A stretch of 64,000 bases of DNA from an uncultured Planctomycetota bacterium (GTDB lineage Bacteria > Planctomycetota > Planctomycetia > Isosphaerales > Isosphaeraceae): assembly GCA_963823665.1 (NCBI GenBank), contig CAWGMQ010000007.1, positions 480,001 through 544,000 of the forward strand. The letters run 5' to 3'. Below the pieces are notes generated by a model. It was not told the origin of the DNA. It ran no database searches and saw only the letters and a program-made list of their open reading frames with translations. The translations under genes were made by a program, and so were the position numbers. Positions 7,658-46,781 of the stretch are shown piece after piece; within the stretch, counting starts at the first letter, position 1; every line of letters starts with the position of its first letter.

Positions 7658-7663
7658 CCCAAA

Positions 7664-7925
7664 GTTGGGCGCAGGTCTCCCGACCGCGCCCCAGAGTCGC
7701 CTTTCGCTCCGCGAAAGTGCGTCCTCGTTGGGCGCGGGTCTCCCGACCCCGCCCCCCGTTTGACCGTAGGTCTCCAACCTTCCGGACCGCCATCGCCCAA
7801 GCCCGATGTTGGGCGCGGGTCTCCCGACCCCGCCCCCGCGTCCGACCGTAGGTCTCCGAGCGTCCGGACCGTCAGTTCAACGCCCGACCATAGGCCGCCA
7901 AACGTCCAGACCGCCGATCGACAGC
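7664..7925. repeat. Cluster of planctomycete-type REP-like palindromic repeats
   Basis: Three copies of GTTGGGCGC(G/A)GGTCTCCCGACC(C/G)CGCCCC, plus GACCGTAGGTCTCC and a CCTTTCGCTCCGCGAAAG hairpin. Confidence 0.8.
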
Positions 7926-34513: not shown

Positions 34514-35137
34514 ATGACGAATCCGCAAGCCGAAGACCCCCTCGGCAAGGTCGTCCTTGCCTCGCAGATGATCATCGGCGCGCTGATCACCGGCCCAATC
34601 CCCGTGCTGATCATCGCGTTCTTCATCGGGCCCGTACTCGGACAGCCGCCCCCTGGCGCAGTGCCACCCGGCGGTGCCGCCGCCGCGGGCCAGGCGTCGA
34701 ACGAGCCGCTCAACACGATCCTCTCCTATGCGGCGTTCGGCGCAGGCACGCTGGCATTACTCGTCTCGGCCATCGTGCCGCGATTCACGTCCTCGAGCGT
34801 AAGCAAGTCCGTCGCCCCGACCGCGCCCGCAGCGCAGCCCGGGAAGAGCGCCGGCAAAGGCAAGCGACCCGGGCCTCAAACAGCCGACGAGCTGCGGACC
34901 AAGCTGCTCCCGCAGTTTCAACAGCAGCTCATCGTCCGCGCCGCCATCCTCGAGGGCGCGGCCTTCTTCGGAGCGACTGCATACCTCCTGACGGGAAACC
35001 CGGTGCCCGCCTGCGTCACCGTCGCGCTCCTGGTCACAATGCTCGTCGATTTTCCCACCAGGACCCGCGTTGACTCCTGGCTCCAGCGGCAACAAGAAAA
35101 ACTCCGGGACGACGAATTCGCCCACTCGCCGGTTTGA
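34514..35137 (+). CDS. Membrane protein
   Basis: Four TM segments; AILEGAAFF and FPTR motifs. Confidence 0.75.
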   Translation: MTNPQAEDPLGKVVLASQMIIGALITGPIPVLIIAFFIGPVLGQPPPGAVPPGGAAAAGQASNEPLNTILSYAAFGAGTLALLVSAIVPRFTSSSVSKSVAPTAPAAQPGKSAGKGKRPGPQTADELRTKLLPQFQQQLIVRAAILEGAAFFGATAYLLTGNPVPACVTVALLVTMLVDFPTRTRVDSWLQRQQEKLRDDEFAHSPV

Positions 35138-35157
35138 TCGATTGGGAGGAAGATCAG

Positions 35158-38005
35158 TTGAAATGGTTTCTCGCACTCGCGCTCGTGAGCTTGCCGCACT
35201 TCTGCCCGGCGCTCGGCCACGCGCAGACAGGCTCGCCGCTGCCCGCCGCTGGCGGAGACGCCAAGAAGGCGACGGCGATCCTTACGAGGCAGTGTCTCAA
35301 GTGCCACGGCCCCGATCATCCCAAGGGCGGCCTCGACCTGAGCCGCCGCGCCGCCGCGCTCAAGGGTGGAAAAAGCGGCGTCGTGCTGGTGCCGGGCTCG
35401 CTGGACGAGAGTCTGCTCCTGGACAAGATCGCCGGCGGCGAGATGCCCCCGAATAATCCGCTCCCACCAGACCAGATCGAGACCCTGCGCACCTGGGTTC
35501 AATCTGGAGCACACTACGCCAGCGAGCCCCTCTCGCTCCCCCGCGCCGGGCCTGATTGGTGGTCGCTCCGGCCGATCCGAAAAGTGGTGGTTCCATCGCC
35601 ACGAAGAGCAGGCTCAGTCTGGGCCAAGAATCCCATCGACGCATTCATTCTTGCGAAGCTCGCCGCAAGCGGCCTCTCCCCCGCTCCCGAAGCTCCGCGC
35701 GCCGCTCTCATCCGCCGCCTCTCTTTCGACCTGACCAGTCTGCCGCCTTCGCCCGAAGCAGTCGACCAGTTCGTTGCCGACCCCGATCCCCGCGCTTATG
35801 AGTTGCTCGTCGACCGGCTGCTGGCGTCCCCGCATTACGGCGAGCGCTGGGGCCGCCACTGGCTCGACGTCGTCCGCTTCGGCGAGAGCGAAGGCTACGA
35901 AACCAACCTGCCGCGGCCGAATGCCTGGCCGTATCCGTGACTACGTCATCCGCGCCTTCAACCGCGACACGCCGTTTCCGCAGTTCGTGCTCGAGCAGCT
36001 CGCGGGCGATACGCTCGATGATGGTCATCCAGGACACGCCGTCGACTGGCTCACCCAGTCGGCCACCGGCTTCTTAGTCGGCGGATCGCACGACGTCGTC
36101 GGCAACCAGACCGTCGAAGGGATGCTCCAGCAGCGTGCCGACGATCTCGACGATATGATCACAGCCACCGGCACCACGTTTCTGGGCCTGACACTTCAAT
36201 GTGCCCGCTGCCACGACCACAAGTTCGATCCGATCACTCAAAAAGATTATTATGGAATGCAAACGATCCTGGCCGGAGTGACCCATGCCGAGCGCGCGAT
36301 CGCAGCGCCCGACGCCGACGCTCGCTTGCGTCAGGCAGGCATCGTTCGAGCCGAGCTCACCGCGATCGAAGCGGGGCTCGATGCCACGGAGCCCCTCGCG
36401 CATCCTGGCCAGGATCGCCCGGCGCGTCCGATGGTCAACTTCCGGCGCAACGTCGAGCGATTCGCACCCGTGAAAGCCCGGATGGTGCGGCTGACGATTC
36501 TGGCCACCAGCAACCAGATCGAGCCGTGCCTCGACGAAGTGGAGGTTTACTCGGCTCCGGGCAACGGAACTCATTCGCCGCGAAACGTCGCCCTGGCAAC
36601 TGCCGGCGGCCGGGCATCAGCCTCGTCGGAATATCCCAATGCCGCGATCCACAAGATCGCTCATCTCAATGACGGACGCACCGGCAACAGCCAGAGCTGG
36701 ATCTCCAATTCCTCGGGGAAGGGGAGTGTGACGCTGGTCTGGCCTGAGCCGGTCACCATCGATCGCATCGTCTGGGGCCGCGATCGCGAAGGAATGTTCA
36801 GCGACCGCCTTGCGACCGAATACTACGTCGAGGCCGCCGTCGAGGCGGATCACTGGGCGGTCGTTGCCTCGTCGATCGATCGCGTGCCGTTCGATCCCAG
36901 GGCAAAGCCCGAGCCCGCCGCGCCCTCGCAGGTTGCAAGCGGCGATCAGCTTGAGCGCGCCCGCCTGGTGCGTCGCCAGGCCGAGTTGCGCACGCTGCTC
37001 GCCGACCTGGGCGCGACGGCGAAAGTCTACGCCGGAACGTTCAGCCAGCCCGGCAAAGGCTATTTGCTGGTTCGCGGCGATCCCACGCGAAAAGGGCCGG
37101 AAGTGCAGCCTGCGGGGCTCGCCGTGCTCAGGCCCGCACTCGTGCTCGACAAGGAATCGCCGGAGGCGTCCCGGCGAGCAGCGCTCGCACGCTGGATCGC
37201 CGATCCGGTCAATCCCCTCCCCGCGCGAGTGATGGTCAATCGGTTGTGGCATTACCATTTCGGCCGGGGACTCGTGGCCACGCCCAGCGACTTCGGCTTC
37301 AACGGCGCGCCCCCCTCGCACCCCGAGCTGCTCGACTGGCTGGCAAGCGCTTATGTCGAAGGCGGCTGGCGGCTCAAGCCCTTGCATCGGCTGATCGTCA
37401 CCTCGGCGACGTATCGCCAGTCAAGCCGGCTCAATGAAAAAGCGCAAGCCATCGATCGCGACAACCGGCTGCTCTGGCGGATGACCCCACGCCGCCTCGA
37501 GGCCGAGCCGATTCGAGACGCGATCTTGGCGTCGAGCGGCAAGCTCGACTCGCGAATGGGCGGGCCCGGATACAACGTCTGGGAAAAAAACACGAATTAC
37601 GTCGCGATCTATAAACCACGAGCCGAGCTGAGCGGCGACGCATTTCGCCGCATGGTCTACCAGTTCAAGCCCCGCAGCCAGGGCGACCCGACATTCGCCG
37701 CCTTCGACTGCCCCGACGCCGCGCTCGCCGTCCCCAGGCGCAACGTCTCGACCACCGCACTCCAGGCTCTGAACCTGCTCAACAGCGAGTTCGTTATCCG
37801 CCAGGCCGCGTTTTTCGCCGAGCGCCTGGAGAAAGAAGTAGGGTCCGATCCCGCCCCGCAGGCGAAGCTCGCTTTTCGCCTGGCGTTCGGCCGCAGTCCA
37901 ACGCAGCCCGAGCTCACCGCCGCCGTGTCGCTGATCAAATCGCATGGAGCGACAGCCCTCTGCCGGGCGCTGTACAATGCGAATGAGTTCATTTACGTTC
38001 CCTGA
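35158..38005 (+). CDS. Planctomycete cytochrome C / DUF1549 / DUF1553 (PSD1) protein, frameshift near 35936
   Basis: CLKCH, NPIDAF, YGERWGRHWLD, NAWPY/RDYVI split across frames, CARCHDHKFDP, ARVMVNRLW, PSHPELLDWLA, NEFIY. Confidence 0.92.
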
Positions 38006-38017
38006 GCAGGATCTCGA

Positions 38018-38470
38018 ATGAGATCGAGGCGTCTGATGGAAACGAACACCATGGGGATCACTCTTGTCACCGCGTTAATCGAGAATCAAGAGGATATCAA
38101 GGCCGCCCAACTTGGCATAATTCCGGAAACGAGTATCCGGCGTTTCGAAGTTGATGACGCTCGAGTTGATACGGGCGCGACGTTCGTCGCCATGCCCAAG
38201 CGACTGATCGACCAATTGGGCCTCAAGAAGATCAAGACGGTCGAGGCCAAGACCGTGTCCGGACTCATGAAGTTTGGCATCTACGACCAGGTCAAACTCA
38301 CGATTCAAGGTCGCGACTGCGAAGTGCGAGTGTCGGAAGTTGCCGACAACCGTCCGGTCTTGATCGGGTACATCCCACTCGAGCTGCTCGATTTCGTTGT
38401 CGCCCCCAGGGAGCAGAAACTGATCGGCAATCCCGATCACGGGGGCCAATACATGATCGACATGTACTGA
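38018..38470 (+). CDS. Clan AA aspartic protease (retropepsin-like)
   Basis: VDTGAT catalytic motif; VLIGYIPLELLDFVV psi-loop. Confidence 0.9.
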   Translation: MRSRRLMETNTMGITLVTALIENQEDIKAAQLGIIPETSIRRFEVDDARVDTGATFVAMPKRLIDQLGLKKIKTVEAKTVSGLMKFGIYDQVKLTIQGRDCEVRVSEVADNRPVLIGYIPLELLDFVVAPREQKLIGNPDHGGQYMIDMY

Positions 38471-38527
38471 AATACGCCAGCTCTGGTAGAACTGGCACGC
38501 CCGCCGGACGCTTCCACCTGCTACGAG

Positions 38528-38782
38528 GTGCAATCCATGGAGTCAGCGAGTGTGGGAAGAGTGCTCGTTTCGGCGAAGATCGAGAACGTAATCTATGGGC
38601 CGGTCCGTTTGACGATCGCCGGACGGCAATGTTCGGTCGACGTCTCGGAAGTGGCGGACACCTGCCCGGTGATCATCGGCTACGTCCCGCTCGAGCTTCT
38701 GGACTTTGTGGTTGATCCTAAGGGCCAGCGACTGATCGGAAATCCCGATCACGGCGGCGAGTTCATGTTCGACATGTATTGA
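38528..38782 (+). pseudogene. Second aspartic protease copy with an in-frame internal deletion removing DTG
   Basis: GRVLVSAKIEN joined directly to YGPVRLTI...IGYVPLELLDFVV...GNPDHGG. Confidence 0.8.
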
Positions 38783-38803
38783 AGAACACTGGCGGTTGCC
38801 GGC

Positions 38804-38854
38804 ATGCTCGGAAATCCCGAGCACGGTGGCGATCCGATGCTCGATATGTTCTAA
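38804..38854 (+). pseudogene. Third aspartic protease remnant, C-terminal 16 codons only
   Basis: MLGNPEHGGDPMLDMF* versus LIGNPDHGGQYMIDMY* and LIGNPDHGGEFMFDMY*. Confidence 0.75.
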
Positions 38855-38863
38855 ATGAGAGGC

Positions 38864-39034
38864 AGTGGTGGCGGCGCTCCAAGCATGTGGAGAGGCCGTC
38901 TCTGGCGGTCTTCTCGACGCTCCGGGGTTACCCCGGGGGCGAAAGTTAGCGGTTCATTTCAGCGCGTGATGCTGGGTGCGCTCGTCGCGCACGACCCATC
39001 ACGCTGGACAAGACCGGTTGGAGCCGCCACCACT
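38864..39034 (+). ncRNA. Retron msr-msd-like non-coding RNA
   Basis: Terminal inverted repeat AGTGGTGGCGGCGCTCCAA (38864-82) / TTGGAGCCGCCACCACT (39018-34); G at 38883; short hairpins 38890-38915 and 38918-38941; long hairpin 38958-39008; directly upstream of the RT. Confidence 0.8.
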
Positions 39035-39060
39035 TCACCCCAACGCGGCGACGCCGCAAT

Positions 39061-39112
39061 GTTGGGCGCGGGTCTCCGACCCCGCCCCCTTCCGTGACCG
39101 CAGGTCTCCGAG
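39061..39112. repeat. REP-like repeat, same family as 7664-7925
   Basis: GTTGGGCGCGGGTCTCCGACCCCGCCCC...GACCGCAGGTCTCCGAG. Confidence 0.8.
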
Positions 39113-39127
39113 ACGCGCGCACAGCGC

Positions 39128-40498
39128 ATGGATACAGCAGACGAAGACCCTATGAAGGTAAAAACGTCTCGCGACTCGCTGATGGAATACCTGGCGCAGG
39201 CGTTCCTCGCCGGTCCCTTGTCGGTCGACGGCCTGGTTGAACGCGCTGGCTTGGTTCTGGGCCGTCGCTACCGTTGGCTGCCACCGCTCGCCGCGAGAAT
39301 TCAAGCTCACTTCGCCGGCAAAGAGCGAATCCCTCAATCGCAGCTCGTCGCCTTCCTGCGTGACGACAAAGGATTTCGGCGAGCGTGCGAAACGCGAAAT
39401 CTGAAGGTGCGTTTTGTGCACTGGTCTGATCCAGTGATGGCTCCGGCCCCGGGCTTGCCGCGTTCCTGGAAAGTCCCCGCCATCACCACCCCCGCCGAGC
39501 TGGCCGGCTTCCTCAACATCACGCCGAACGAGCTCGACTGGTTCGCAGACATCCAGGGTCGCGAGCGCATCTGCCGGGTCGAGCCGATGCGTCACTACCG
39601 GTATCGCTGGGTGGCCAAGCGCTCGGGCTCGTTCCGCCTGATCGAAGCACCCAAGCCGCGGTTGAAGGGATTCCAGCGCGTCGTGCTCGACGCGATCCTG
39701 GCGCACATTCCTCCGCACGAAAGCGCACACGGCTTTCGCCCCGGCCGCTCGATCAATTCGTTCGTCGCGCCTCATGTGGCCCGCCCGGTCGTGCTCAAGA
39801 TGGACCTCCGTGATTTCTTCGTGTCGATCACCAGCGCGCGGGTGACCGCGATTTTCCTGACCGCCGGATATCCCGAGCCCGTCGCCCGGCTCCTGGCGGG
39901 GCTATGCACCAACACCGTCCCGGCGGAGGTGTTGAACCAGGTTGGACGCCCGGATCCGAATTCGGTCCGGTCGACGATGTCATGGCAAGACCAGCGTCCC
40001 TACTGCCTTCCGCACCTGCCCCAGGGGTCGCCCACTTCGCCGGCTCTGGCCAACCTCGCTGCCTACCGCTTCGACACGCGGCTGGCTGCTCTTTCGGAAG
40101 CTGCGGGCGCCGACTACACCCGTTACGCCGACGACTTGTTGTTCTCAGGCGATTCATCCTTCGCCCGCTCGGTTCGCCGATTCACGGTTCAAGTCGCCGC
40201 GATCGCCCTCGAGGAGGGCTTTGCCATCGCTCACCGCAAGACACGCGTGATGCGACAAGGCGTCTGCCAGCGCGCCGCCGGAATCGTGATCAATCAGAAA
40301 ATCAACATGCCGCGCGATGACTACGACCGGCTGAAGGCCATATTGAACAACTGCATCAAGCACGGCCCAGCCGGGCAGAACCGAACTGCCGTCGCCGACT
40401 TCCGGGCCCACCTGTCGGGCCGTGTCGCGCATGCAATCCGGCTCAACCCACACCGGGGTGAGAAGCTGAGGGGGCTCCTCAGACAGATCGAATGGTGA
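39128..40498 (+). CDS. Retron-type reverse transcriptase with N-terminal extension
   Basis: KRSGSFRLIEAP, AHGFRPGRSI...H, KMDLRDFF, LPQGSPTSPALAN, YTRYADDLLFSG, and QRAAGIVIN at the VTG position. Confidence 0.92.
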   Translation: MDTADEDPMKVKTSRDSLMEYLAQAFLAGPLSVDGLVERAGLVLGRRYRWLPPLAARIQAHFAGKERIPQSQLVAFLRDDKGFRRACETRNLKVRFVHWSDPVMAPAPGLPRSWKVPAITTPAELAGFLNITPNELDWFADIQGRERICRVEPMRHYRYRWVAKRSGSFRLIEAPKPRLKGFQRVVLDAILAHIPPHESAHGFRPGRSINSFVAPHVARPVVLKMDLRDFFVSITSARVTAIFLTAGYPEPVARLLAGLCTNTVPAEVLNQVGRPDPNSVRSTMSWQDQRPYCLPHLPQGSPTSPALANLAAYRFDTRLAALSEAAGADYTRYADDLLFSGDSSFARSVRRFTVQVAAIALEEGFAIAHRKTRVMRQGVCQRAAGIVINQKINMPRDDYDRLKAILNNCIKHGPAGQNRTAVADFRAHLSGRVAHAIRLNPHRGEKLRGLLRQIEW

Positions 40499-40589
40499 GT
40501 CGCTCGCGGTGAAGCCTCCATCGCCGAACCTTGATTGCAACCGTAAACGGTAGTAAGATTAGAGACGCAATTCGATTCCGGGGCCTGGG

Positions 40590-40916
40590 ATGAGACTGCA
40601 TCATTCGTTCGAGTGGGACGAGGACAAGGCGGTCAAGAACCGGAAGAAACACAATGTGTCTTTCGACGATGCTGCACGAGTGCTCGCGGATAACGAGGGA
40701 GGCTTCTATCACATAGAAGAGTTCGACGATCTCCACAACGACGATGAGGACCGGTACATCACAACCGCGGCCCACCCGGACGACCGACTGATCGTTCTTC
40801 GCATCACATGGACCGACCGGTCCACTCGCTCTCAACCGATCACTCGAATTATCAGTGCCCGACTCGCGACGAGACTCGAGAGGAAGAATTATGCGCAAGA
40901 AATCAAAAACAAGTAG
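40590..40916 (+). CDS. BrnT family (DUF497) toxin
   Basis: FEWDEDKAVKNRKKHNVSF, EDRY and [16 protein letters not shown] motifs. Confidence 0.9.
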   Translation: MRLHHSFEWDEDKAVKNRKKHNVSFDDAARVLADNEGGFYHIEEFDDLHNDDEDRYITTAAHPDDRLIVLRITWTDRSTRSQPITRIISARLATRLERKNYAQEIKNK

Positions 40917-41373
40917 GGTCATCAAAAAGAACGCCGCCGATATATCACCAGCGACAAACGAAGATCTCGTTCGCCTTCGCAACGCGATGGTTGGACAAAT
41001 CGACACATCAGAAATCGCCGAGCGCAGGCGAACACCCGATCGGCTCCTGCGCGATTCAACAGGCCGACTCCCGTCTCGAAGGAGCATTGTGCGAGACGCG
41101 ATCGTGCGTGAGCTCAAGCATCTCAAGATGACGCCCTACCGCCTGTGGAAGGAGGCCAGGGTGCATTGCCCCACCCTTTCCCAGTCCGCAGTTCACGAGT
41201 TCATTAAGGGTCAAAGGCAACTCGAGCTTCCTTACGCAGAAGCCCTCATGATGGCGACGCACCTCGGAATCGTTCGCAAGCAAGCTGGTGGTGGGCTGAA
41301 AAAGGTGAGATTACGTCGCACTGCTCTTGCGAACGTGCAGTCAAAAGCCGGTCTGACCCGTCGCGAAGATTAA
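40891..41373 (+). CDS. Putative antitoxin with BrnA-like N-terminus and XRE-type HTH
   Basis: Overlaps brnT; IDTSEIAE resembles the BrnA IDxSDIPE motif; [10 protein letters not shown]...[15 protein letters not shown]. Confidence 0.7.
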
Positions 41374-41423
41374 AAACCTCCACCGACCGCCAGACCTTGA
41401 ATCTCTCAATGAGGCTAGCGCCG

Positions 41424-42911
41424 ATGCCCGCTCGACGAACCCTACTCCTGGCCCGCCACCTCCTCGACCGCCGCAATTTCCTCGCCCACATGGCAACCGG
41501 CATGGGCGGAATTGCCCTGGGCGCTTTACTCGCCGAGGATGGGCTCCTGGCAGCAGATGACACTTCCGAATCCAAAAAGAACACGGCCGCTCCGGGTAGT
41601 CCGCTCGCATCGAGACCGCCGCATTTCCCCGCCAAAGCCACTCGCGTCCTGCACATCTTCTGCACCGGCGCCGTCAGCCATCTCGACACCTGGGATTACA
41701 AGCCCGCCCTCTGGAAGCGCGACGGCCAGCCCATGCCCGGCGTCGAGAAATTGATCACATTTCAGGGCGAAAACGGCAACCTCGCGCGCAGCCCATGGAC
41801 ATTCCGCCAGCGCGGCCAGACCGGCAAATGGGTCTCCGACCTCCTGCCGCATCTCGCCGAACGTGTCGACGAGATGTGCTTCATCCATTCGCTGACATCG
41901 AAGACCAACACGCACGGCCCGGGCGAAATGTTCATGAGCACGGGCTTCACCCTCGAAGGCTTTCCCAGCGCCGGCGCGTGGGTCAGCTACGCGCTGGGCA
42001 CCGAGAACCAGGACTTGCCCGCCTACGTCGCGATTCCCGACCCGCGCGGCGACCCGCAACAAGGTCCCGCCAACTGGACGAATGGCTTCCTGCCGGCTGT
42101 CTATCAGGGCACCGCGTTCAACGCCGGCCGGCCAATCAGCCATCTGGCGCGGCCAAAACAAATCTCGCCCGGCGACGATGTCGCCGCCCGTGATTTCCTC
42201 AGCTTGCTCAACGATCTGCACCTGAAGCAGAACCCGGGCGACGCCGAGCTTTCAGCGAGGATCGCCGCCTACGAGCTCGCCGGCCGGATGCAGCAAAGCG
42301 CTCCCGAAGTCGGCAACCTCTCGCAAGTAAGCCCGGCGACGCAGGCGCTCTACGGGCTCAATTCCCCCAACCCGCTCACCGCCGCCTTCGGCCGGAACTG
42401 TTTGCTGGCGCGCCGTCTTCTCGAGCGCGGCGTGCGATTCGTCACGCTCTACAACGGTGCCTTTGCCATGGGCGAAGGCGTGCTCAACTGGGACGGCCAC
42501 CGCCGCATCCAGTCCGATTACAACCGTCACGCCCCGATCCTCGACCAACCCGCCGCAGCCCTCTTGATCGACATGAAGAGCCGCGGCCTGCTCGACGACA
42601 CCCTGGTCGTCTGGACCACCGAATTCGGCCGCATGCCGACATTCCAGAAGGGAACTCAAGGCCGCGACCATAACCCGAAAGGCTTCACCGCCTGGCTCGC
42701 CGGCGCAGGCGTCAAGCGCGGCTTCAGCTTCGGTGCAACCGACGAATTCGGCTATCAAGCCTTGGAAAACGTGGTCGACGTCCACGACTTCCACGCAACC
42801 ATCCTGCACCTGCTCGGCCTCGATCACACCAGGTTGACCTACAACCACAACGGCACATCCCGCCGACTCACCGACGTGCACGGTCACGTTATCAAGGACG
42901 TGCTGGCGTAG
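41424..42911 (+). CDS. DUF1501 domain protein (Tat signal)
   Basis: [34 protein letters not shown] and GRDHNP motifs. Confidence 0.93.
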
Positions 42912-46058: not shown

Positions 46059-46339
46059 GTGACGATCGACGGCTCGCCGAACGGCAAGGAGCATCACCGC
46101 ACCGAGCCGGCTCCGACGTGATCTGCTGTAGGAGGGAGCTCCGTCTCCCGACCCGATCACATGATCTGCCCTATATTCCGGCTATTACGCAACCGGGCGG
46201 GAAACCTTACAAGGCCACGCTGGTTTTTGCGGGGCATTGCGGTCGTGCAATGGCTGCCCCGCGATCCTAGTCGTCTTGATAATTACCTTTAACGGTACGA
46301 CCGTGGCCTGAGAAGCTGGCGAGGCAATAAGGAAACAAT

Positions 46340-46781
46340 ATGCCCAAGCAATCAAAGGCAGGTAAGATGATCCGGCAGATCCGCAGGCGATGGCCCTGCG
46401 ACGACGGCGCTGGACCTGGAACGCCTCAGGGAGACAATGCGCCGCGCTGTCCGAACGGACGATATACCGGAGTTGAAAGGAACTGAAGCTCCGGTCTGCC
46501 GCGACGCGTCGGGCAATCTACCCGTAAGACGGCTAGGACCGATGCGTCGGGCCATTTTGGAAGCGCTCGACGATCACAAAATGACGCGATACGAATTATG
46601 GAAGAAGGCCCGCGCCCATTGCGGCACGCTGTCGCGGTCGGCAGTCCATGAATATTTAAGGGGCGCCAGGGACATTGGGGTCGAATACGCCGAAGCCTTG
46701 ATGATGGCTGCAAATTTGAAAGTCGTTGGACAAAGCCGGGCCAGACCGAAGGGACCGAGCGCAGGTCGCCTGAAAGCGTAA
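46340..46781 (+). CDS. Orphan paralogue of the 40891 HTH antitoxin, frameshift near 46390
   Basis: MTRYELWKKARAHCGTLSRSAVHEYLRG...YAEALMMA closely matches 40891-41373. Confidence 0.72.

Follow-up and report, generated by a model that had tools for sequence, protein, structure and literature searches.

The retron islet of this planctomycete appears to be a composite, at a probability we put at roughly 0.86, in which three independent modules meet where a DUF1549/DUF1553 gene borders its DUF1501 partner. The first would be a stand-alone clade-11 retron that draws its output from no adjacent gene. The second would be a tandem array of clan-AA proteases in decay, the tail of a DUF1553 operon, and the third a self-contained type II BrnT/antitoxin pair that carries a candidate promoter of its own and arrived later, 3' of the reverse transcriptase (RT). 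A sequence-only reading of the window, the whole 64,000-nucleotide stretch analyzed, had listed a protease, two protease remnants, a noncoding RNA (ncRNA), a YADD RT, a BrnT gene, and a gene overlapping it, and every one of these is present on the + strand at the position it had been given. That reading saw no canonical effector by the retron, which agrees with the content of the islet, and it suggested that a retropepsin or BrnT might serve as the effector of a new retron type, while warning that the linkage might be coincidental. The warning was right. Homologous RTs have no consistent association with either gene, neither gene is co-distributed with the RT at independent sites, and a comparison of the neighborhoods of those RTs found no recurring retropepsin or BrnT. 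Many of the compared genomes are incomplete MAGs, so an absence here and below means "not found." Two points speak against a composite. A full-length protease is not rare near this retron within the family. In addition, the islet genes all share one orientation, with no terminator-like site detected on the + strand in the protease-ncRNA or RT-BrnT gap, and cotranscription is therefore likely.

The retron opens with an msr/msd ncRNA (38864-39034, +), recognized by fold statistics, covariation, and inverted repeats. Its fold has a z score of -3.86, with none of 200 shuffles equally stable, and across 40 relatives compensatory changes occur in 18 of 26 pairs. Moreover, 97.8% of the alignment cells are paired, a level that none of 500 shuffles reached and that compares with 33-47% in slid controls. 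The terminal arms (38864-38882 and 39018-39034, +) pair over 17 bp with a 2-nt bulge. Inside the 5' arm, facing G39017, G38883 (+) occupies a highly conserved column of alignment A4, and from known retron chemistry we infer that it is the branch point. An msr hairpin of 8 bp with a 3-nt loop (38920-38938, +), conserved in the family by motif search and covariation, lies upstream of 70 of 80 RT loci with 99.7% of its cells paired and is probably the RT recognition stem. The long msd hairpin (38964-39004, +; inverted repeat I15), with compensatory changes in 10 of 13 pairs, is the predicted template for an msDNA of about 70 nt, and its complement folded as DNA gives a z of -2.0. An upstream ncRNA with a1/a2 inverted repeats, short msr hairpins, and a long msd stem is what is expected of a retron; an Rfam scan of the islet gave no match above chance, its one hit having an E value of 0.29. 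We propose that the RT would bind the conserved msr hairpin, prime from the 2'-OH of G38883, and copy the msd hairpin into a branched msDNA of about 70 nt that would remain bound in an RT-RNA-DNA particle. Some 105 nt of repeat DNA separate the ncRNA from the RT; this insertion (39043-39146), which lies outside the retron, carries a genome-wide REP-like repeat with 67 matches in the genome itself, and the same spot in a congener has no insertion.

The RT (39152-40498, +) lies in an open reading frame that is open from 39128 and probably starts at ATG 39152. It consists of a five-helix N-terminal domain, a YADD core, and a helical thumb; its last residue, 456, lies just beyond the thumb helices, and RVT_1 is the sole Pfam domain detected. 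The YADD motif (residues 333 to 336) is invariant in 58 sequences, and the best Foldseek matches are retron RTs (Ec86, 7v9x; E value of 5.8e-20, TMt of 0.84), so both the (Y/F)xDD active site and the retron-type fold are in place. The retron motifs ascribed to the RT from sequence stand only in part: YADD is there, but region X has FVAPH in place of NAxxH, and region Y has AAG in place of VTG. Such divergence is common in the RT family (N in 8/58, VTG in 8/58), and H216 and G385 are invariant in it even as the window reads FVAPH and AAG. The equivalent residues are the most conserved of the region X and Y motifs according to PMC7736814.

Classification places the RT among retrons that are already cataloged and have no partner. 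PADLOC models rank it as RT_other (494 bits), then RT_outgroup (466 bits), then RT_XIII (298 bits, 196 below RT_other); four actinobacterial RTs give the identical ranking, and the order is reversed for the type XIII RT of the same genome. In the tree it groups with RTs of Arthrobacter and Nakamurella (UFBoot 90 and 98), on a branch separate from type XIII. Its assignment to the clade-11 stand-alone retrons of Mestre et al. 2020 is indirect, from the PADLOC ranking and the tree, and the equation of PADLOC "outgroup" with clade 11 is our own reading of a table in PMC13712802. We conclude that the islet holds a genuine retron of this partnerless kind, for which msDNA production is predicted. Consistent with that kind, there is no recurrent associated protein: the largest neighbor cluster within 2 kb of the RT covers 5 of 160 loci, and no recurrent effector family was found in the 150 of 232 nearest open reading frames that were scanned.

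The clan-AA proteases belong to the site rather than to the retron. P0002 (38018-38470, +, with a start possibly at ATG 38036) has an intact DTG and scores above cutoff for Pfam gag-asp_proteas and Asp_protease_2 and below cutoff for TIGR03698. It is followed by a second copy (38528-38782, +) that has lost the DTG to an in-frame deletion of about 63 codons (P0002 residues 25 to 87) and by a 16-codon stub of a third (38804-38854, +; repeat family D2, 75% identity) that retains only the C terminus. One out-of-frame row (L008) of alignment A7 was ignored. Second and third copies stand intact and in tandem at the DUF1553 site in four other genomes (G100, G083, G087, and G117). The RT was considered as the maker of the remnants and rejected, as G117 carries tandem copies at the site without a nearby retron and G015 (L135) has a partial duplicate of a similar kind. 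The inherited order at the site is DUF1553, proteases, S9 peptidase, retron, and DUF1501. The protease array touches the ncRNA in the window because the S9 gene, the separator in relatives, is missing there.

Could the protease nonetheless be the effector of a lineage-specific tripartite retron? We consider this very unlikely. In the order, 7 of the 47 RT-bearing genomes have a full-length protease no more than 10 kb from the RT, a distance used because 1.5-kb flanks miss protease copies set apart by the S9 gene. It is directly adjacent to the retron in three (G000, G012, and G081), 7 of 10 judgeable retron-bearing copies of the site hold one, and the window copy is co-oriented with its DTG intact. 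All seven, however, are one inherited site, and the S9 gene stands between protease and retron in four of them. Moreover, no more than about 50 nt separate the protease start from the DUF1553 stop in 12 of 12 site copies with a full protease, and the protease stays by DUF1553 in G105, G117, and G066 though the retron of those genomes lies elsewhere. The two also come apart at the site itself: G085 and L001 have the retron and no protease, G001 has only a stub, and five genomes, among them G021, have the protease and no retron. No protease match was found in 16 of the 47 RT-bearing assemblies of the order, nor was a protease near the RT at any of 160 loci of the wider set, where a positive control works. 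A literature search that covered few subscription papers found no link between retrons, aspartic proteases, and msDNA. We conclude that P0002 belongs to the gene run behind DUF1553.

The BrnT gene is likewise better explained by its own partner. P0004 (40590-40916, +) is a BrnT-family RNase toxin (PF04365, 60.7 bits against a cutoff of 34.5; PDB 7vd7 toxin, E value of 2.6e-15). The gene that overlaps it, P0005 (40891-41373, +), had been called an HTH gene; the overlap holds, but the product also has an N-terminal half (residues 8 to 64) modeled as BrnT binding, and no library matches the HTH label. The C-terminal half may be HTH-like rather than RHH. The modeled BrnT-P0005 complex scores 0.88 against 0.01 for the best control, at a mark reached by 116 of 157 solved pairs and 2 of 215 mismatched pairs, with at least 95% of contacts shared among runs and a partner pLDDT of at least 78. 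P0005 and its relatives have no match in Pfam, BrnA included, or in PDB, and no relative was found in viral contigs. BrnT is directly upstream at 12 of 17 P0005-family loci, and an RT lies within 1.5 kb at only 2 of the 17. These loci and the model mark P0005 as the cognate BrnT antitoxin, and a BrnT toxin with an overlapping cognate antitoxin gene is the arrangement of a type II system. A candidate promoter for the pair (40531-40559, +), picked by eye with 8 of 12 consensus matches, has a 12-nt palindrome (40540-40551) in its spacer; a promoter scan that returned 1 site against 0.8 expected did not call it, and similar elements lie upstream at three homologous loci.

That BrnT, with or without P0005, is the effector of the retron seems hardly credible. 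Its gene begins 91 nt past the RT stop and has the same orientation, and the congener G001 retains an antitoxin gene fragment at the same place. G001 has nevertheless kept its retron without BrnT. Of 39 family genomes, a single one has BrnT next to the RT, and 160 wider RT loci yielded one weak hit on the opposite strand. The pair, for its part, is found at 11 further loci whose 1.5-kb flanks hold no RT, and it has both a candidate promoter and a modeled protein antitoxin of its own. No link between retrons and BrnT appears in the literature searched, which takes in few subscription papers and some sources only in part. A new retron type armed with a retropepsin or BrnT would be important if true, and comparative genomics does not support it. 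Rather, the locus is a clear case of inherited synteny and loss of an intervening gene imitating a functional operon.

The N-terminal domain of the RT (residues 15 to 89), which the sequence-only reading had also named as a possible effector, occurs throughout the family and is already covered by the PADLOC RT_outgroup model. The retron might be a complete two-part defense in which this domain is a built-in effector or recruiter, restrained by msDNA and released by phage, a proposal compatible with the composite anatomy that we regard as unlikely. The domain is retained in at least six phyla, folds confidently when modeled alone (pLDDT of 89.6), and changes more quickly than the core (column conservation averaging 0.42 versus 0.64 to 0.70). 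Among the best 150 of 977 hits to its profile, 87 continue into an RT core and the other 63 mostly end or leave frame soon, with the two longest hits being full RTs. Types I-C, XI, and XII are known to have effectors fused to the RT (PMC7736814). No column of the domain is invariant, however, none of its conserved residues looks catalytic, and one planctomycete subclade has a different N terminus. Furthermore, 4 of 90 Pfam-named nearest open reading frames are toxin-like or TA-like, a raw count without a background rate, and the neighbors are otherwise unrelated metabolic and mostly housekeeping genes; viral contigs hold no close relative of the RT, only distant RTs of at best 37% identity. 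In a fold search of 48,161 chains the best match had a VIA Z of 5.2 (rmsd of 3.4, 76 aligned). There was no BFVD hit at an E value of ≤0.001, Pfam gave nothing beyond weak DUF1707 hits in 4 of 57, and the best Atlas score was 0.77; these results do not by themselves prove a new fold. A basic, noncatalytic helical domain would most likely grip nucleic acid or a partner encoded elsewhere. That it is an effector or a host-target docking site, such that the widespread two-part clade-11 cassettes represent a distinct mode of retron immunity, is improbable on present evidence.

Alternatively, the retron may have been domesticated for a nondefense job, such as an msDNA regulator or protein sink, or may be a near-neutral mobile cassette. 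Either fits the composite anatomy, and we hold this to be a doubtful but somewhat better prospect. Of 121 genomes in the order, 47 carry the retron, each at a single locus, and it sits at many different sites among housekeeping genes; domestication of clade 11 was raised by Mestre et al. (PMC7736814). Patchy presence and closely related RTs at different sites, however, suggest turnover more than a fixed core role, and the strong RNA covariation speaks against neutrality. Under the composite reading, the locus offers a planctomycete stand-alone retron whose RNA is mapped, whose branch point is predicted, and whose RT has a delimited, deletable N-terminal domain. It makes the role of partnerless retrons testable, although any clade-11 member would be equally suitable.

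Among the closest known systems, BrnT/BrnA of Brucella abortus (PMC11980606) has the toxin-first order, overlapping genes, and BrnT Pfam hit seen here, and the N-terminal half of P0005 is modeled on the toxin as in that system; HTH domains occur in 2 of the 33 BrnT-BrnA fusions described in that paper. P0005 differs in having no Pfam BrnA hit or PDB match, and the C terminus of the BrnA family is RHH. Type XI retrons, in which the RT is fused to a trypsin-like serine protease, share with the islet a protease near a retron. The islet protease is instead a separate, upstream aspartic enzyme, neither fused nor co-distributed; RT-Protease_XI models score about 187 bits on the islet RT, which is not of type XI. 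Type XIII (clade 10; Mx162, Mx65, Sa163, and Ne144) is the next-best model (298 bits), has a long N-terminal region, and is common in planctomycetes. The islet RT nevertheless sits on a separate branch of the tree and falls outside that type; no SWIM, WGR, or HEAT/ARM partner was found in the islet by open reading frame inspection and Pfam. We note that the same genome carries a type XIII retron elsewhere, with NAREH and VTG motifs and a SWIM-like gene. Finally, clade 11 is described by Mestre et al. 2020 (PMC7736814) as mainly actinobacterial, stand-alone (msr-msd)-RT cassettes, and the Khan et al. table lists Arthrobacter and Nakamurella under it. Clade11-A and -B have OutgroupA and OutgroupB RNA models, and Planctomycetota are already included in clade11-B (PMC13712802). 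The window differs in its planctomycete host and in the chance neighbors and repeat insertion particular to its genome. It shares with clade 11 an ncRNA directly upstream of a retron RT, no recurrent accessory gene, and RT_other and RT_outgroup as the best PADLOC models, spanning the N-terminal domain.

The islet in the window (G000:C7:480001-544000 of a 16.5-Mb assembly) is bordered on the left by a cytochrome c/DUF1549/DUF1553 gene ending at 38005 and on the right by a DUF1501 gene (41397-42911). Between them lie a clan-AA protease with its DTG present (38018-38470), a second protease copy missing about 63 codons, DTG included (38528-38782), a 16-codon protease stub (38804-38854), a structured RNA (arms 38864-38882 and 39018-39034), the RT open reading frame (39128-40498), BrnT (40590-40916) and the gene for P0005 (40891-41373), a 160-residue protein whose gene overlaps that of BrnT. 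All are on the plus strand, and the co-oriented cluster described by the sequence-only reading is confirmed. The left border gene (35134-38005) is broken by a frameshift near 35935 and is a single reading frame in relatives. The frameshift may be an assembly error; frameshifts of a similar kind occur in the RT genes of several relatives.

The RNA is strongly structured. Positions 38850-39050 fold at -99.6 kcal/mol (z -3.86; 0 of 200 shuffles as stable), and the arms enclose a pair of msr hairpins followed by the long msd hairpin (38964-39004). With up to 3 mismatches allowed, the motif of the second msr hairpin precedes 70 of 80 related RTs (raw count). Each of 65 non-redundant copies, cut to the predicted outer stem, scored z below -2 against 30 shuffles, with a median of -5.4; the set excludes near-duplicates and at least one copy (L059) that lacks the enclosing stem. 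Among 40 hand-picked copies, compensatory changes occur in 18 of the 26 consensus pairs and 97.8% of cells pair, a level reached by 0 of 500 shuffles and compared with 33-47% in slid controls; the structure was taken from the same alignment, which biases the test in its favor, and the outer stem is in register over only 5 bp. At one RT locus (L017), the upstream RNA copy has lost most of the msd hairpin and kept the arms and msr hairpins. About 105 nt between the RNA and the RT (39043-39146) contain a repeat for which the genome has 67 matches. Because this segment is missing from the congener, in which an ATG lies directly 3' of the RNA, the true RT start is probably 39152. The repeat is REP-like (39040-39125), its matches often stand in tandem clusters, and three more copies lie at 7660-7860.

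Whether the protease serves the retron can be judged from its distribution. Of 121 genomes in the order, 47 carry the RT, and by coordinates a full-length protease lies within 10 kb of it in 7 of the 47, the main result against treating the two as unlinked. All seven pairs, however, occupy one inherited site, which is a plain cause of the association, and the site genomes are kin that count as one ancestral site with no independent cases. The protease has no assembly match (E of 1e-15 or 1e-20) in 16 of the 47, several of them 95 to 100% complete. The site runs from DUF1553 through a tandem of up to three proteases (none in some genomes), an S9 peptidase gene and the RNA and RT to DUF1501. In four genomes (G100, G090, G083 and G087), S9 separates a run of one to three proteases from the retron; three, the window's included, lack S9, and the protease adjoins the retron (G000, G012 and G081). 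Others have S9 and the retron with the protease absent (G085 and L001), a protease stub and the retron (the congener, G001), or a contig end inside S9 (G075). In G021, the protease and S9 run into DUF1501 with the retron absent, and in G015, G117, G066 and G105, a protease stands behind DUF1553 with no retron in the following 4 to 8 kb; G105 has a retron before DUF1501 on another contig, and G117 and G066 have one elsewhere. The junction is empty in G033, G035, G013, G009 and G028 and holds a 1.2-kb insert with neither protease nor retron in G026. Wherever the site holds a full protease (12 copies), no more than about 50 nt separate the DUF1553 stop from the protease start; the protease thus goes with DUF1553. 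The protease adjoins the RNA in the window because the S9 gene is missing, and the two remnants look like the leftover of a tandem array. Site proteases with altered catalytic motifs, DPG and DTA (L150:9057-9485 in G015 and L109:6255-6596 in G012), would fit either relaxed selection or errors in sequencing. We consider it very unlikely that the protease is the retron effector.

BrnT seems to belong with P0005. Of 39 family genomes checked (36 loci plus 3 more), only that of the window has BrnT next to the RT. The P0005 family was compared at 17 loci, after removal of a duplicate half from 18; 12 of them have all or part of BrnT directly upstream, and the RT lies within 1.5 kb at only 2, the window and the congener. 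In the congener, the candidate promoter and BrnT are absent and 63 codons of P0005 are kept. That BrnT is the effector, one option in the sequence-only reading, is hardly credible. This candidate promoter, with a 12-nt palindrome, was read by eye and uncalled in a promoter scan; it sits in front of BrnT and resembles elements at three homologous loci. Modeled as a complex, BrnT and P0005 residues 1 to 130 scored 0.88 (best control, 0.01). The mark, which 116 of 157 solved pairs and 2 of 215 mismatched ones attained, applies roughly, as the alignments were custom-made. At least 95% of contacts agree between runs, the partner pLDDT is 78 or higher, and the modeled interface falls within P0005 residues 8 to 64. 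The model supports predicted binding. As BrnT-antitoxin complexes are textbook pairs, resemblance to a solved structure could account for the pass. The C-terminal half of P0005 is presumably HTH-like. The family has at least 66 proteins, without a Pfam or PDB match, its partner is a distinct 108-residue BrnT subfamily, and it is probably an unannotated antitoxin family. A P0005 paralogue at 46339-46781 (47% identical over 117 residues) is preceded by a comparable palindrome, lacks a BrnT gene ahead of it and seems to be frameshifted close to the start.

Neither neighbor recurs farther afield. Profile searches covered 160 RT loci weighted to distant relatives, 80 from genomes and 80 from metagenomes, of which 104 extend at least 1.5 kb to either side. 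No protease turned up among them; in a positive control, the protease profile recovered the known copies. The one other BrnT is a weak, opposite-strand match with a probable antitoxin, upstream of the RNA (L032:5350-5650), and the one P0005 fragment (L008) lies at a copy of the window's own site. The biggest neighbor cluster within 2 kb of the RT covers 5 of the 160 loci. Of 232 nearest reading frames, 150 were scanned, from 107 loci after removal of near-duplicates; 90 of these match a Pfam family and are almost all metabolic or housekeeping genes of unrelated kinds, 4 of the 90 are toxin- or TA-like, and none is an aspartyl protease or BrnT. The literature searched yielded no published link of retrons to either. 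In a planctomycete subclade with a different RT N terminus, a 255-residue hydrophobic protein lies directly 3' of the RT at 8 of 17 loci checked (L069:7139-7903; also L076, L080, L101, L103, L104, L268 and L269). Copies are 49 to 100% identical, have no Pfam match and are followed by topA at four loci; this may be synteny or a real partner in that subclade.

How the retron would act follows known chemistry. Retron RTs act on the msr, priming occurs at a G inside the 5' arm, and the msd is copied to branched DNA. PMC7736814 outlines this chemistry. Here, the RT would bind the msr and prime from G38883, just inside the 5' arm and opposite G39017, and the msd would be copied into branched DNA of about 70 nt. 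The complement of the predicted msDNA gives a hairpin fold with z -2.0, equaled by 8 of 200 shuffles. RT residues 15 to 89 form five helices with a net charge of +7 and no invariant column, and among the best 150 of 977 matches to a profile of this domain, 87 run on into an RT core and most others are short or lose the frame. Family and fold searches gave no clear match for the domain. This basic, noncatalytic domain most likely binds nucleic acid or a partner encoded elsewhere; that it is a built-in effector seems unlikely. A domesticated or near-neutral role for the retron is possible, if doubtful.

The evidence does not support the new retron type that the sequence-only reading raised as a possibility. 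The AlphaFold model of the RT has a pLDDT of 93.5 and retron RTs as top structural matches; region X reads FVAPH and region Y AAG, and all 58 sequences compared keep the key H and G. The closest relatives come from planctomycetes. When 61 query-anchored RT cores are placed in a tree, with a viral-contig RT as arbitrary root, the window RT falls in a six-member planctomycete group (UFBoot 100) nested with Arthrobacter and Nakamurella RTs (UFBoot 90; 98 with a sister planctomycete subclade) and apart from L082, a second retron of the same genome. The table of Khan et al. lists both genera under clade 11, with no subtype (PMC10849725), Mestre et al. place stand-alone msr-msd-RT cassettes in clade 11 (PMC7736814), and the SPIRE survey (PMC13712802) gives clade11-A and clade11-B, assigns OutgroupA/B models to them and lists no accessory module. 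The best PADLOC models, RT_other (494 bits) and RT_outgroup (466 bits), both cover the N-terminal domain and rank alike in four actinobacterial relatives. Together with the genera in the tree, this ranking indirectly places the retron as a stand-alone clade-11 type, a kind already catalogued. L082 (G000:C7:317620-318576) lies about 200 kb off, with RT motifs NAREH and VTG and an upstream gene with a SWIM-like CxC...CxH motif. The window RT ranks RT_other and RT_outgroup far above RT_XIII (298 bits), whereas L082 shows the reverse, type XIII ranking (RT_XIII, 476 bits).
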